Positions 1 through 11,511 of a DNA stretch of 64,000 nucleotides are shown here, one piece after another. A program made the translations under genes and the position numbers. The DNA comes from Paecilomyces variotii. Taxonomy: Eukaryota. The notes beneath the pieces are model-generated. The model saw nothing but the letters and a program-made list of their open reading frames with translations, had not been told where the DNA came from and did no database searches. Each line of letters starts with the position of its first letter. The stretch's first letter is position 1. The stretch lies in NCBI GenBank assembly GCA_004022145.1, contig RCNU01000002.1; one strand, written 5' to 3'.

Positions 1-923
1 CAGTTAGCTGTTATGCAAGACGCCAAAATCAGGGCAAAGGAAAATCCATACAGATTGAACAACTCGGTCACCCTCTCTGGAGCCACCATAACATCTTCAA
101 TTCGCTTAAATTGATGGCCACCGTTCCTCATATAACTCGAAGAACCATCAAAGCCTGACCGCAAGTCCAGCAGTGATGCGACGGCCTCGTGTGAACCCAT
201 GTATTGGTCTGCGGACATTCCCGACGAGCCCTGGTAGACTCCGGCTGCACTGCTTATGGGCGTCGAAATGGACGGTGTCTCTTGCTTTGTCGGTGTCAGT
301 TGCGGCTGCTGTTGATTCATGGACGCAGCAGCAGCAGCGGCGGCGGCGGCATTGGCGTTTGCAACCTGCTTCCTCAGCTCGATGATCTCCCGCTCCATTT
401 CCGCATTGCGGCTGCGTTTGCCTATCCGCTTGAAGTTCGACTCGATTTTGCACTCGAGCTTGAGACGGCGACACCGAGAGCACGTCGTGAAGGGATCCTG
501 AACGACATCGCACCGGAGCTGTGACCATGACCAATCAGTTAGCAACGCTGTTCGCAACTAAATGCTCTTCCTCTGCATCCAGACTATCCCGTCCAACGAT
601 AGCCAGATCCATTCTGCGCTCACCTTCTGCTGTCGACACTCATTGCAGGCCCGTTTCACTGGCTGCCTCCTCTTATCCTCTTGTCCATCATGGTCTTCTA
701 TATCGTCTGTACTCCCCGGGGAGCTATCGATCCCAGCCACCGAGACATTGCGCTTTTTCGCCTGTGGCAGACCCGATGACACCCCAGCAGTAGGAGAATG
801 GCCAACCGTCCCTCTTATCGGACTGACTACTGCAGACGCATTGTTGTTCCTGTTCGGCCCCAGGACTTCCCCTTTCACCCCTCCACCTCCGATTCCGCTC
901 GAGGAGCCCGCGAGAGACGCCAC
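1..923 (-). CDS. leuB: Leu3/LeuB-type Zn(II)2Cys6 transcription factor, 5' part (gene runs off the left edge); probable non-AUG (GUG) start
   Basis: Exon 923-624 ends ...KRRQPVKRACNECRQQK. Intron 623-519 (GTGAGC..CTAAC..CAG). Exon 518-52 reads LRCDVVQDPFTTCSRCRRLKLECKIESNFKRIGKRSRNAEMEREIIELRKQ. Next donor GTATGG at 51. The Zn cluster and linker resemble yeast Leu3 (CxECRQQK...KRxRN). The symbol is from recognition, and the start codon is inferred. Confidence 0.75.
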
Positions 924-1117
924 GCTGGGTAAGCTGTGAAACACGCAATGGCTAGAGCTCGGACGAGAAAAAAAAGATCAGCCGATCGGCCACGGACGAG
1001 CAAGAGGCCCAATTCGGTCCAGTCGCGGCGCAGTGAGAGCTATCTGGTATAGCTTACTCTGGACGATAAATTTATTTTCCTTTTTTTTTTTCCCTTCTCT
1101 CTTAGACTTGATGCCGA

Positions 1118-1273
1118 ATGACTCGTTCTGGACCAAAGTCGGCGCCCCTCGACGATAGATGAGTAACCGGGGCCGAGTGGGGGTTGCGCTTTCCGATCTC
1201 GCTCGCCGTTTTCTGTCAGGTGACTCAGCCGCACGTGAGACTTGATGAGTCATCTATCTCCTATCTCACGTGA
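1118..1273. promoter_or_regulatory. Cluster of Gcn4/CpcA elements and E-boxes upstream of the LeuB-type gene
   Basis: TGACTCA 1221-1227, perfect ATGAGTCAT 1245-1253, partial ATGACTC 1118-1124, CACGTG 1232-1237 and TCACGTGA 1266-1273. Confidence 0.65.
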
Positions 1274-1994
1274 TGCAAGTTATCTATCACGTTCTCCGCA
1301 GAGCCTCACTCAATAGTTATTAATAGCCCCGCAGATCCCCATGACCCAATGACGCAGGACTGCAGATTGACTATATCATTGCTTACTGCAACACTGCCTC
1401 ATCTCGCCTCGCACGGCTGAATAGATACGGTTGCGACATTAGTACCTACTTATCAATTGCTTCTACTCTCTCTACAACTCTTCTGTGTGACTAAGTCTCT
1501 ACTTGTGAATAACCAGGTTAGAAGACAACGTGTCGTGGATGGATAGGTACATAGAGAATACGACAGATATTATTGAACTGGTCTCGTGCTATTTTAAAAC
1601 CGCGGAGCGTTGGGGGCCATTATTTGGTTGCTTTTTAGTCTCTAATCACCAGGCGCAGGGCTCAGAGCCTCAACATGCTCTACCCCTCGTTTTTCCAGCC
1701 TCATAAGGCGTGCTAGTCAGCCTTGATAGTTGAACTTTACATGCACCCCGAACTCATGCATATAAAGGCAGACATGGGTACTGCCAAGCTTGGAGTAAAT
1801 AGATAATAACAGAGTCATATTAAAGACTTACATGAGCCTCTGAACCGTCCCTTTCGTTATTGATTTTGTCTCACAGCAAAGATTGGGCACTTTCGGCCGC
1901 TTATCTCAAGGATCAAGTTGTGCTTTCTCGACAGATCCTTGCTTGCGAGTATCATCAAGGAGCAGAAAATTGATGATCTGATCTTCCAACTGAG

Positions 1995-4500
1995 ATGGAA
2001 GGAAATGAAGAACTAAATAGGCCACCTGCCTACGATGAAGTAGAGCACCTGGCTGGGAACATCCCACCTCTGGATCTGAGCAAAAGCGCAGGGTCTGCGC
2101 AGACTTCAACAGTCACCAAAGACCAGTGCATTGTCCATTTGAAGTTCCTTGCTGCTCTGGCTGATCTGCGCGACACCATCGGTAGGGAAGACAAATTATT
2201 CGGCATTAAAGATTCTCAAGCCGACAGGATTCAGGACGACACGCGAGGAGCCCTCGTGCGGATTAGGGAGAAACGATGGGCTGTTTATACATCGAGAGCT
2301 GTTTACCGTTTTGCGCTCTGGTGGGAACTCTGTGTGCCCACATCTGGTCCACTTCCCACTCTGGAGGACTTGACGAAGTCGAGCTATTACGCTGTCACCA
2401 ATTGCAAGCATCGGGTGTCTTGGAATAAAGACAATATGCCGCCTCTAGGTGAGTTGAGCAATAGTGGAGTTGCTTGAAGTGGTTTTTATTTTCTTTTTAT
2501 TTTCTTTTTGACTTCCCACTTCAAATTCGCAAGAATAGAGCGGTCCTGACTAACATATATTCCAGATGTCATGATGGTATGGCATGCATATATGCTCAAT
2601 CCTAGATCATTCCTCGAGGACTGCATTCGCAATGCCAAAATGAGCTTTTGGGCCTCTGGATTCCCCTGGGATGTCATAAACGACTGTATAGATAATCAAA
2701 GTTTCAACTACGTGGTAGGAAATACTGCTAGGAAGAACTTTGAAGAAAAAACCGGTCTTAAATGGGACAACCTTGACGATCCACCCAATCGACCCGTCCA
2801 ATGTCCATCCTGTCAGGTCCCCGTATTCGTTCCCTGGACCGCTGGACGGATGGGCAACAGTTCGTCGAAACTATTCGAAGATTGCTATGGTTACGCCGAC
2901 AAGAACTTTCAGGCATACTGCCATGTTTGCAATTTCTCTATCAATCATGAGAAGCTCAGAGTCGCCAAGTTCAAGAGGGATCTGGAGGCATTGATGAGAA
3001 AACACCGACCGATGCCAGGTACGGTGTACACTCTCGAAGGCATTCCCGAAGCAGTAGTGCCGCAGCGACTCCACGGAGAGACCTTCCCAAACTGTCTGAT
3101 GATGACTCTGGGAGATGATCTACTTCGGCTGGCTGATTCGAAATCAAACTCTTCCACTACCATGGTAACAATACGCGACTTTTTCGAAGACAAGATCAAG
3201 AACCAAAATATTATTAGAATAGCGAAAGATTCATCGCGTGGAGTACTATCACGCGATGAGAGGATTTGTTTACGCCGGATGATGTCCCGCTACTGGGATA
3301 ACAATAGTCAGTTTGCCCTTGATCTTGTGGGAGCCGTTATCCGCCAAGGGACATTCGTTCAGAAGATGGATGATATCGACTGGTTGCATTCGCCTGCTCT
3401 TGTGGCGACTATGGATCGTCTTATAGAAAAATACAGGATCTTCTTCAAAATAATGACAGATCATCCAGGCCGTATGGCTGTCCCTACACTCGATGTTGAT
3501 CTAGCTTGGCATACACACCAGCTTTCTCCCCCTCGATATTTCTCCTTCTCGGTAATGCAATCGTCTTTAAGGACTTTCATCGATCACGACGACAAGGTCG
3601 AGGAATCCAGACTCTCCGACGCATTCGCATGGACAAGCAAAGCTTACAAAAAGGTTACCAACGGAGGGATCTACAGCGAATGCACCTGCTGGTACTGCGA
3701 AGCGATTCGAGTCCCTGATCTCGGGGGCATCTTCGTCTCCAGCGCCACAGCTAGAGCCCGTGAAGCGGCTGAGAACTTGCATAACAGGCCCGACATCTCT
3801 TCAAATCCATTCAAAAATGCGCACATCTCCGCTCACAACGCGGTACATCCGCCAGGGACATCATTTGATCGAGCCAGTCTTAAGATTATTCAACTCAAGA
3901 ACCTCCACGACAAACACCGTCGGAGGGCAGAGAAGCGAAAGCGCAAGTCTAAGCAAGGACAAAGCTCCGAGAAGAGTGCCCACGAGCAGCGCGCTTATCA
4001 AGATATACCCATTGTTTGGGGATACGCATATGCCCCAGGTCTCTATGGGCCGTACATGTGTGATCCAGGAATTAGTGCAGATGCTTACCCGCATAATCCA
4101 TCATGCATGAACACTACTCCTGGCGCTGCTGGTAACTGCGTCGGAGGAACTTGCGGAGGTACAGTGGCCGCTGGCGGCTGTGGAGGATATACAGTGGGAG
4201 GTTGTTCAGGTGGTGTTCCAGGAGGCTGCGGCAGTGGGTCTGGGGGTTTTGGTAAGTGTCTCTGCAACCTTCGATAACTCAAACCAGACTGTCCGCTAAT
4301 ATACCTCTTACATAGCCGGTGGAGGCTGCGGCGGCTCTGGTGGTGGTGGTTGTTCTGGTGGTGGTGGTTCTGGTGGTGGTGCTGGTTGCGGCGGAGGTGG
4401 TGGGGGAGGAGGCGGCGGCGGCTGTAAGTCAACCTCCCCTATCCTTACAACTTCAATCTCGGGGCGACTCTGACCATTATCTATAGGCGGTGGTTGTTAG
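1995..4500 (+). CDS. Glycine-rich domain protein (GRDP/DUF1399 family) with Gly/Cys-rich tail
   Basis: Exons 1995-2448, 2566-4251, 4316-4423, 4487-4500. Motifs PPLDVMMVWHAYMLNPR, DLVGAVIRQGTFVQKM, VPTLDVDLAWHTHQLSP and IDHDD; tail of GGCGG repeats. Confidence 0.85.
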
Positions 4501-8474: not shown

Positions 8475-9237
8475 GGTCACAGCGGACTTTCTATGTCCAC
8501 TATCGGACAGAGGTATTGTGACTCAGTAGTGTGAGTTCAGATATCTGGAGCAGGACACATGACGACGTCAAGAAGGTCTCATTTCCTGTCTCTGGGTGAC
8601 TGCAAGAGATAGACCGCTTTCCTTTGAATAATGGATGTTCACTGTGGATGTTCGCTGTGGCTGTGTCATGTACATAAAGTCCTATGCATGCATGGAGCTC
8701 CGTTCCACGTTGCACCGTGCAAACGACTAAGACGCCAAGAGTCAGGTCTTCCGAATATTCTCTAGAGGAATTGACGATGAGAGAAACACTAGCATCAACT
8801 CTGGAGATGAAACGCGGTCTGGAGGTGAAATATAAATAGAGCATTTAGGCTCGTCACCTGCAGGGCTCTCCCACCCGGCGTGCTGTGATTGGCTTGGAGC
8901 AATGACTAATCGATGACTCATCTGACTTCCCCACGATCGCGATACCGAGATAAAGATGATGATAGGCTTCAAAGACTGTTCCAGATGTATGCGTATCCTT
9001 ACAGCCAACAGTCTGAGCTACGTCTCCGTGAATATGCTTCTTCGAAGATCGGCATGTGTGTCGCCTTGAAGTTCTAGTGGCCGTTGACGATTATGACTTC
9101 GTTCACTTAGATCGCTTGACCTCGGGTAAGGCCCGAATTTTCTCCAACGGGTGAATAGTATTGCAAGTACAGGGCCATATGGCCCTTTTGTGATTATGCG
9201 CGTGTTATCAACAAGGACGAATATAATCTAGCAAGCT

Positions 9238-11511
9238 ATGTCGAATACTGTGTCTGTGCAGAATGGCGTGGCCCCCAAGGCCCAGCCAGTGACATTCAAT
9301 GCTGGGTCACGGCCCTATCGGTCACACAAAGTGAGGGCTTGCGATCTATGTCGGAAACGCAAGGCTCGATGCACGGTTGATATCCCAGGGCAATCATGCC
9401 TTCTATGTCGGGTTCAAGGAGCCGACTGCCATTATCGAGAGGAATCGAGTCAAGATTCCTGGCCAGTGGAGCAACTGGCGGCAGGCCAGAAGCGCAAGCG
9501 CACGCCAGAATTGACGCCCACACCACCCCAGGATGGAAGTAGATCTCCATCGGACAGGATATACGGCCACTCTTTACTCCACAGGGAAAGTGGTCGCCAG
9601 AGTTCATCAAGGAGTCGTGGACCTGAGGACCCGAAAAATGAATCGGTCCACATTGTCGGCCCTGTCGCAGCAGAGGATGCGCAGGTTATTGAAAAGTTCA
9701 TGCCTCCTGAACGATCCAACAAGTCCCCGGAATCAAGGAAGAATCCTTACAATGTCTACTCTAACGACCCGCGGAAACCAATCCTCTATACCACCGTCTC
9801 AAGACGAAGACAGGGTATGCGCATGGGCAATCCTCCGGGAGAAAATCAGAAAGAAATCTTGGAACAGATCCTTGGACCCTTCAAGGATGACCTTGTGAAA
9901 TTGTAAGGTCCCCATTATCCATTTTTGTGTTATTGGTTCTCTAATATTCCGTGTAGATTCATAGAAAGATCCAATCAGTGCTTCCCAATCTTTGACGGGG
10001 AAGCCTTCTGGGAGTCATACTTATCGGGTTCCACAGATGACCCTCCAACAACGTTGTTATGCCAGGTTTACGCGATGTCACTGGTATATTGGAAACATAC
10101 GCCGAAGCTTGCACGGCATCCAAAACCAGACGTCCGGTATGCGGTGAACCTCACAGTGGCGGCGCTTCATGAAGACTTTTCAGCGCCAGGCTTGTCAACT
10201 ATCGGTGCCGCTCTGATCGACCTCACGGGGAGACCAATCTTTTCCATGACTGGAAATGCAATTAACTGTGGTCGTACAGTCTCTCTCGCTCACTGCCTTG
10301 GACTAAACCGTGATCCGAGCAATTGGAAACTATCCGCTCAAGAGAAAAATCAACGAATTCGGTTATGGTGGGGAGTTGTTATCGTTGACAGGTGGTATGC
10401 TTTATCGTAGAACTGCACTCGGAGTGACCTCAGCTAATGCTAGGCCAGGGGGAGTTTTGGGCATGGAGTACCGCCCTCGATCTCGAAAACCCAATACGAT
10501 GTTCCTCTCCCGACAGTGGATGTCCTAGTTCCGTCAAATGACCGAAATCCCCAACGTGTGAAGAGAGCCTATTGTTACATAGCATTATGCCGGTTGACCG
10601 AGATCTTGGGGGAACTGCTGCCACTTGTTTATGGCCTTCAGCCGAAATCAGTGAAGGAAACATCTAAAAGACTCCGGCATATACGAACTAATTTAGACAC
10701 ATGGGAAGATTCTCTTCCAGACTGGCTGAAGTCTCCACAGCGATCTGATGCACCTGTTAGTGGTGCCTGCAGTCTACAGCTCGGCTTTCTAGCTCTGAAG
10801 ATGCTCATCTGCAGGGTTGAACTACATGTAAGATTACCCGTGGACTCCTTGGGATTATTTGAGCCGCATTTGACACATTTTTCTCAGGAAATCAACAACT
10901 CAGACACCGAAAATCCCGAGGCTAGGAGATATTTCCAAACAGAATGTCGAAAATCCGCAGAGGAAATTGTGCAATTCATCTCATCACTACGAAAAGAGAA
11001 CTTTCAAGAATTTTGGCTACCATGTATGTTGTCATCAGTGGTCTCCATTCCGGTGTGCTAGGTACCTGACAGCTTTTCAGATAGCGCATTCCACCTCACG
11101 TCAACCGCGACATTGCTCGTCAGATGTGCTCTGGAAACGACGGACCCTGAAGTTTCTAGGTCATGCCTTGCCAATGTCGATTCCTTCCGCTCCGTGCTCC
11201 GCCGTGTGAGAGACGAAGAGGACTGGGATGTCGCCGACATGTGTCTCGACCATTGCGACAAAATTCTACACCGAGCTCCCAGCAACAACAGTCATGCAGC
11301 TGGCAGCTCGGATGTGCGACTCACCACTGCCGCGCCTGAACCTTCAACGGTCAACCCAGCCGCTATAGCACTGCCAGAAACACAGACGCACAATGAGATT
11401 GTGGACGATATGATGTCTATCTCTGGAACATTCGGGACTATGGATGGCTTCCCCTTTGATATGACAGGTATCTGGGACGTAACTGGGTTTCAAGATGCCA
11501 ATTTCACATGA
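9238..11511 (+). CDS. Zn(II)2Cys6 transcription factor with fungal-specific TF (middle homology) domain
   Basis: Exons 9238-9902, 9957-10394, 10449-10827, 10888-11023, 11081-11511. ACDLCRKRKARC...CLLCRVQGADC; LAHCLGLNRDP...RIRLWWGVVIVDRW. Confidence 0.9.

Follow-up and report, generated by a model that had tools for sequence, protein, structure and literature searches.

A conserved GUG or CUG codon is the probable initiation site of the Leu3/LeuB-type regulator in Paecilomyces variotii and related fungi

To our knowledge, few fungal transcription factors depend on a non-AUG start. The Leu3/LeuB regulators are known to be controlled by alpha-isopropylmalate and not at initiation. The most efficient near-cognate codons are CUG and GUG, whose use is lowered by eIF1 and raised by eIF5 (PMC5666671). 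In Podospora anserina, a CUG start that is conserved in N. crassa has been proposed for the bZIP factor IDI-4 (PMC5487733). LeuB governs leucine synthesis, gdhA and, in A. fumigatus, iron uptake (PMC6221358). The A. fumigatus LeuB mutants of that study follow a 920-aa automated model, as seen from a primer that encodes its first residues and from the C240 numbering, and the numbering of its binding construct fits a 732-aa model. The term 'start codon' has no occurrence in the main text of PMC6221358, and the available text of PMC8262921 holds nothing relevant to the leuB start. No report of a non-AUG start of leuB or LEU3 was found in a search whose coverage excluded subscription journals, figure alignments and the original A. 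nidulans leuB papers. Here we describe a leuB gene at the start of a 64,000-nt stretch of P. variotii DNA (the window), which comparative evidence makes very likely to be translated from a conserved near-cognate start, GUG 923, into a LeuB of 772 aa whose zinc cluster is intact.

The gene adjoining the window start, on the minus strand, is by homology a Leu3/LeuB orthologue. Its second coding exon (52..518), which encodes the remainder of the zinc cluster, the linker and the dimerisation helix in a gene that extends past the window start, was 99% identical over 518-54 to a Paecilomyces variotii protein and 60-74% identical to Aspergillus, Penicillium, Talaromyces and Onygenales proteins, several of them labelled Leu3. 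A member of the LeuB cluster aligned with the 920-aa A. fumigatus LeuB model (AFUA_2G03460) at 73.7% identity over 726 columns, and residue 240 of that model is the Cys mutated in PMC6221358. The LeuB protein P0001 scored above the cut-off for both PF00172 and PF04082 (Zn2Cys6 cluster and fungal transcription factor middle domain), and the PDB matches of the LeuB database protein were to Leu3 only. The next paralogues in an own-genome search were 41-46% identical; a paralogue at G000:C1:137072-139206 matches most of the protein at 41-58% identity. A GT-AG intron of 105 nt (519..623) splits the zinc cluster and is removed in the RNA contigs of three of the four sequencing runs compared below (X1, X4 and X14). 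Coding exon 1 (624..923, minus strand, 100 codons) encodes a Gly/Ser-rich N-terminus, a basic KKRN motif (758-747) that is a candidate nuclear signal, and the first half of the Zn2Cys6 cluster, so that the predicted length of LeuB from GTG 923 is 100 + 672 = 772 aa. Another Zn2Cys6-type gene begins at 9232-10410 on the plus strand (KVRACDLCRKRKARC).

An earlier, sequence-only reading of this DNA had pointed out that the exon 1 frame is open from an in-frame TGA to the intron at 623 without an ATG, and this was confirmed. The TGA lies at 978..980, 19 codons 5' of the GTG, no in-frame ATG occurs anywhere in 977-624, and in the spliced mRNA an in-frame ATG first occurs 3' of the zinc cluster (MEREI, 396..398; previously placed near 400). 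The GTG at 921..923, which we propose as the LeuB initiation codon, has the strong context ascribed to it (cagcGTGgc, with C-4, A-3, G+4 and C+5). The second in-frame GTG of that reading is also present (942..944), in a weak context (ttgcGTGtt) and without conservation, as is the out-of-frame AUG at 841, the first after GTG 923, which has A at -3 and opens a 4-codon ORF encoding MRLQ (827..841). In all, seven out-of-frame AUGs lie between GTG 923 and ATG 398, at 841, 748, 691, 688, 643, 508 and 406. A sequencing error at GTG 923 or TGA 980 is unlikely, because no variant letter was found at 923-921, covered by all four runs, or at 980-978, covered by three and unchanged in X1, X2 and X4.

The four runs (X1, X2, X4 and X14) were compared as assembled contigs, which drop rare isoforms and give no transcription start; X2 is unspliced and DNA-like and was used for strain variants only. 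Upstream of intron 623-519 the contigs were continuous and unspliced over 1274-624 in X1, 1091-624 in X4 and 936-624 in X14, giving a 5' leader (924..1274, minus strand) that reaches 1274 in X1 and 1091 in X4 and is ATG-free in all frames over 1250-924. An intron at 952..1057 had been proposed to lie in the 5'-UTR. The phase arithmetic behind this proposal, which set donor 1057 against acceptors at 952, 934 and 925, was correct; the intron itself was not borne out, as the X1 and X4 contigs read through it and no joint removing 1057-952 was found in the contigs of any of the four runs, from which rare isoforms drop out. The RNA contigs, being unspliced through 1274-624, show no sign of this intron or of an upstream AUG exon. 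A 91-codon uORF begins at ATG 1253 (978..1253), which lies within a Gcn4 site, ATGACTCAT, as had been noted; the uORF has a weak context (T at -3), no conservation and no Pfam match, and a 1-nt deletion at 1092 in X2 makes it end at 1040. Conserved uORFs of the GCN4/cpc-1 type were not found, the 1253 uORF being weak in context and frameshifted in X2. Among the matches listed, the upstream stretch (up to 150 nt available) is ATG-free in 14 of 18 loci.

If an upstream AUG exon were spliced in frame, by the route 1439/1386/952 or 1253/1057/830, the CAG at -4 to -2 would be a splice acceptor and not part of an initiation context. When ATGs, permissive donors and acceptors were combined within 2.6 kb, 157 such models arose on paper, two of them absent from the sequence-only reading: 1439/1386/952, which is in frame, with GTAAGC as a canonical donor and a branch-like site, and 1253/1057 with phase-1 acceptors such as 830. 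Many Onygenales database models also splice into the GTG/CTG spot. We nevertheless regard an AUG exon as very unlikely. All 157 models are disfavoured because each removes sequence that X1 (1274-624) and X4 (1091-624) keep unspliced though other introns are removed, and no joint was found in any of the four runs. The exon at 1387..1439 was rejected, its ATG 1439 reading ATA in X2 and its joint occurring in none of the four runs; an RNA contig of the divergent gene contains 1439-1387. Nor was there a joint for ATG 1253, donor 1057 and an acceptor such as 830 in the contigs of the four runs, and hence no distant ATG exon spliced in frame, the outcome that the sequence-only reading had set against its own proposal. 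Of 18 loci, 8 have the AG missing or displaced (caac, catt, caag), and the invariant T+2 G+3 G+4 is left unexplained by an acceptor. Locus L068, which looks like cDNA because it is without the zinc-cluster intron, retains 148 nt 5' of its CTG, and these are ATG-free. P. variotii database models start MRLQ/MRLR-YSPGS at the out-of-frame ATG 841 and add an extra intron, which is absent from the RNA contigs of the runs examined.

Conservation of GTG 923 was evaluated by aligning orthologous 5' regions. Metagenome contigs scanned for the invariant exon 1 end provided at least 114 loci, 80 with 1500-nt flanks and the others with 300. Deduplication left 95, which a protein-motif rule split into 18 Eurotiomycete-type loci and 77 others; 17 and 72 remained after those with <250 nt upstream were dropped. 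The S-[V/L]-A peptide served as the anchor for twelve Eurotiomycete-type loci, window included (L016 was anchored on its GTG rather than on the preceding ATT), and the motif was derived from these 12. C-4, A-3 and T+2 G+3 G+4 were each present in 12/12 and C+5 in 11/12, the first base of the codon was G in seven and C in five, and the residues encoded at -2 and -1 were variable. Five further distinct loci outside the motif set, all from Chaetothyriales (L018, L032, L045, L089 and L102), carry caag[C/G]TGgct.

In a blind scan for CAnn[CG]TGG over the 330 nt before the zinc cluster, the matches listed for the Eurotiomycete-type set were in frame in 17/17 loci, with none in the other frames; those listed for the remaining 72 loci were in frame in 6, with 1 and 14 in the other frames. 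Among these six, L028 groups with Chaetothyriales on a long branch, and an in-frame ATG lies upstream in each of the remaining five. Prokaryote genomes scanned with the motif gave no matches, as expected. Among the matches listed there are 20 distinct Eurotiomycete-type loci: 18 carry the motif, nine with GTG and nine with CTG, L092 is too short, and the Trichophyton-like L057 has an ATG and no motif. An in-frame C-A-N-N-[G/C]TG-G was thus present in 18 of the 19 listed with enough upstream DNA, window included. Background codon use in these exons is GTG for 25 of 63 Val and CTG for 8 of 31 Leu; a p-value is withheld because the loci are related and the counts are not independent. Since Val and Leu exchange while always retaining TG, and a wobble C-4 is kept under six residues, the alignments indicate a constraint that acts on the nucleotides of the codon and its context.

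The conserved codon is the one at 923 and not that at 944, it occurs as GUG or CUG, and coding constraint lies downstream of it. No aligned orthologue has an AUG at this position in DNA; their AUGs sit elsewhere. The start proposed in the sequence-only reading has thereby gained strong comparative support, and it is shared by Eurotiales and Chaetothyriales, more widely than that reading had guessed. A quick tree, which gives rough placement only and no single supported Eurotiomycete clade, put the loci in Eurotiales and Chaetothyriales, with L016, L026 and L048 unplaced. Onygenales support is at the protein level only, as a V-A-A/N-L-A peptide within discordant models. The Histoplasma-like P0057, with MAALAF at the candidate codon, was considered as an AUG reversion and rejected, as it is a Logan gene call with an unreliable M; a call of the same kind renders an intronic TTG of the window as M (P0129), and Histoplasma model P0135 has Val there. 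The near-cognate start thus appears to be old, common to Eurotiales and Chaetothyriales and probably to Onygenales, and to switch between GUG and CUG.

The coding signature was located by eight pairwise alignments. Mismatches by codon position were 52:69:90 over the ~100 nt after the codon and 77:70:75 over up to 93 nt before it, and gap lengths were divisible by three in 5/5 cases downstream and 1/28 upstream. By this comparison, the coding signature starts at GTG 923. A related RNA contig (X14 record 4, 738-938) has 18 differences, of which 13 are listed and 11 of these 13 fall at third positions (p=0.0002), six of them lying 5' of the position of the Aspergillus AUG. Purifying selection acts on exon 1, and the RNA contigs show transcription and splicing of the gene.

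The same data bear on whether another near-cognate codon (GTG 944, ATC 893 or GTG 878), or several including 923, might start translation. GTG 944 is in frame and upstream, and GTG 878 has G at -3, but relatives show nothing matching 944, whose context has T at both -3 and +4, GTG 878 is GTT in X14 record 4, and frame-keeping and conservation begin at 923, which makes this alternative most improbable. We also find it hard to credit that S-V/L-A reflects a protein-level constraint inherited from an ancestor whose N-terminus began at an AUG, with the window gene decaying or making only a zinc-finger-less product. A similar peptide does occur in outgroup proteins, six residues after their Met (Sarea: MDSSPSVAGLAG), but a constraint on the protein cannot fix the choice of GTG or CTG, or a wobble C-4 under six different residues. 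Purifying selection on exon 1 and the transcription and splicing of the gene also stand against decay, and LeuB function in A. fumigatus needs the zinc cluster (C240A, PMC6221358). We therefore retain GUG 923 as the start.

Across loci, the near-cognate codon is the one constant among the aligned candidate starts. Six loci (L117, L028, L029, L048, L016 and L026) are without any in-frame ATG from the upstream stop to the zinc cluster; the window and five other loci offer no candidate but the near-cognate codon, which elsewhere is accompanied by at least one other. It is not the only possible start everywhere, because some loci have an in-frame AUG upstream or downstream. Three Chaetothyriales loci (L018, L032, L045) have an upstream AUG in the open frame, and an upstream Met is common to several annotated Exophiala/Cladophialophora proteins; 6 of the 18 motif loci, among the matches listed, carry a downstream one. 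The Knufia-like genomic contigs L032:1501-1540 and L045:1501-1540 are without the zinc-cluster intron, a probable intron loss. Five Aspergillus/Penicillium-like loci keep CUG/GUG and have an in-frame AUG at +96 to +111 (32-37 codons on). This is preceded by an out-of-frame AUG whose ORF ends on it in 4/5 loci and overruns it in 1/5, with TAATG or ATGA overlaps at the annotated Aspergillus/Penicillium AUG in four loci and a complete one in the fifth. An AGA (Arg) codon at 813..815 of the window, minus strand, stands in the alignment column of the Aspergillaceae Met (SPI-R-GT here vs SPV-M-GG). In two close relatives, P. lecythidis and P. variotii No. 5, an AUG follows the basic motif and lies 28 aa ahead of Cys1.

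Distances from annotated start to Cys1 were taken from hand-listed named database proteins. Non-Eurotiomycete starts lie 65-86 aa before Cys1 in 24/25 proteins and Aspergillaceae starts 45-60 aa before it in 60/65. Starts scatter over 70-256 aa in Onygenales (n=27), where 4/27 are without the full cluster, and over 28-196 aa in other Eurotiales (n=10), two of them without it. Some Histoplasma, Blastomyces and Paecilomyces models (P0133, P0147, P0151, P0140, P0127 and others) start after or inside the zinc cluster. Such late-starting models are likely to be a consequence of the missing AUG, and the published LeuB start is probably wrong in many genomes. If so, the LeuB N-terminus would be mis-annotated across the class, including major industrial and medical fungi; some LeuB models omit the zinc cluster or contain spurious introns. 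In the simplest history, an ancestral AUG a few codons upstream would have been lost, a Val codon would have become the start, and AUGs would have been gained sporadically; Aspergillus, Penicillium and some Paecilomyces may later have gained downstream in-frame AUGs with the near-cognate codon retained. The result is a natural series (near-cognate only, near-cognate plus a later AUG, and AUG-only outgroups) in which to ask why a weak start persists.

How initiation at GUG 923 might set LeuB output can be outlined. The leuB mRNA would have an unspliced leader of at least ~170-350 nt, and a scanning 40S subunit with initiator Met-tRNA would start at GUG 923, aided by the optimal context. Ribosomes passing the GUG would meet the strong out-of-frame AUG 841 and six more, and would make little or no LeuB, so that output would be capped at the rate of GUG initiation. 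The zinc-finger-less isoform suggested earlier is unlikely to be abundant; it should be scarce because seven out-of-frame AUGs intervene before ATG 398. A dependence of LeuB level on start-codon stringency is plausible. It is possible, though doubtful, that Eurotiomycete LeuB is a sensor of that stringency, built from GUG/CUG and a conserved out-of-frame decoy AUG ~25-28 codons downstream. An out-of-frame AATG aligns in the 841 column in 8/8 Eurotiales loci, which is suggestive but weak because Asn before G is already AAT in 27/37. Among the matches listed, all 18 loci have their first downstream ATG in the +1 frame, which is not counted as evidence because NAT-G junctions are common in Asn/Asp-rich sequence. 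A conserved downstream hairpin was not supported in 12 loci (z -1.7 to +2.2; window +1.9). Were the sensor real, the main protein of Aspergillus/Penicillium would be the longer CUG/GUG form, or reinitiation would set a two-isoform ratio, and the balance of eIF1 and eIF5 or the supply of initiator tRNA would tune the leucine, nitrogen and iron-uptake regulons atop CpcA-driven transcription.

Two Gcn4/CpcA-type sites lie at 1221..1253 (ATGACTCAT, 1253-1245, and TGAGTCA, 1227-1221; consensus from PMC5487733), and TGAGTCA recurs at -183 to -204 in all three Penicillium-like loci with enough upstream DNA, suggesting transcriptional cross-pathway control of leuB through these predicted sites. Two CACGTG boxes (1272 and 1237) interleave with the Gcn4-type sites (1272-1221, minus strand), and just past these boxes, at 1276-1312, three small deletions distinguish strain X2. 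Sites for Leu3 autoregulation (CCG-N4/5-CGG) were absent upstream in the window and present, scattered, in 3/13 loci. The divergent neighbour (1977-4277, plus strand) has a GRDP-like domain (PF07173) and a 53-nt intron near 2181-2233, seen in X4. Its RNA contigs begin at 1335-1397, ~60-120 nt from the leuB contig end, so the two genes appear to share a compact promoter.

The gene is orthologous to Leu3p of S. cerevisiae and LeuB of A. nidulans and A. fumigatus, and like them is a Zn2Cys6 regulator with Gcn4-type promoter sites. Its putative obligate GUG start resembles that of another essential regulatory protein, DAP5/eIF4G2, which initiates at GUG only (PMC5666671); DAP5 differs in being an animal translation factor for which GUG has been shown experimentally, the evidence for LeuB being comparative only. 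The near-cognate extensions of Pezizomycotina cpc-1/CpcA (PMC5487733) likewise belong to an amino-acid-pathway regulator and combine a conserved codon position and context with lineage-specific identity. Unlike LeuB, CPC1 retains a main AUG and two regulatory uORFs (PMC5487733), whereas the window LeuB lacks an in-frame AUG ahead of its DNA-binding domain, and a conserved uORF was not found. IDI-4 is, like LeuB, a fungal transcription factor with a conserved near-cognate start (PMC5487733). LeuB differs from it in belonging to another protein family, in a codon that alternates between GUG and CUG across orders, and in the downstream AUG that some lineages have gained.
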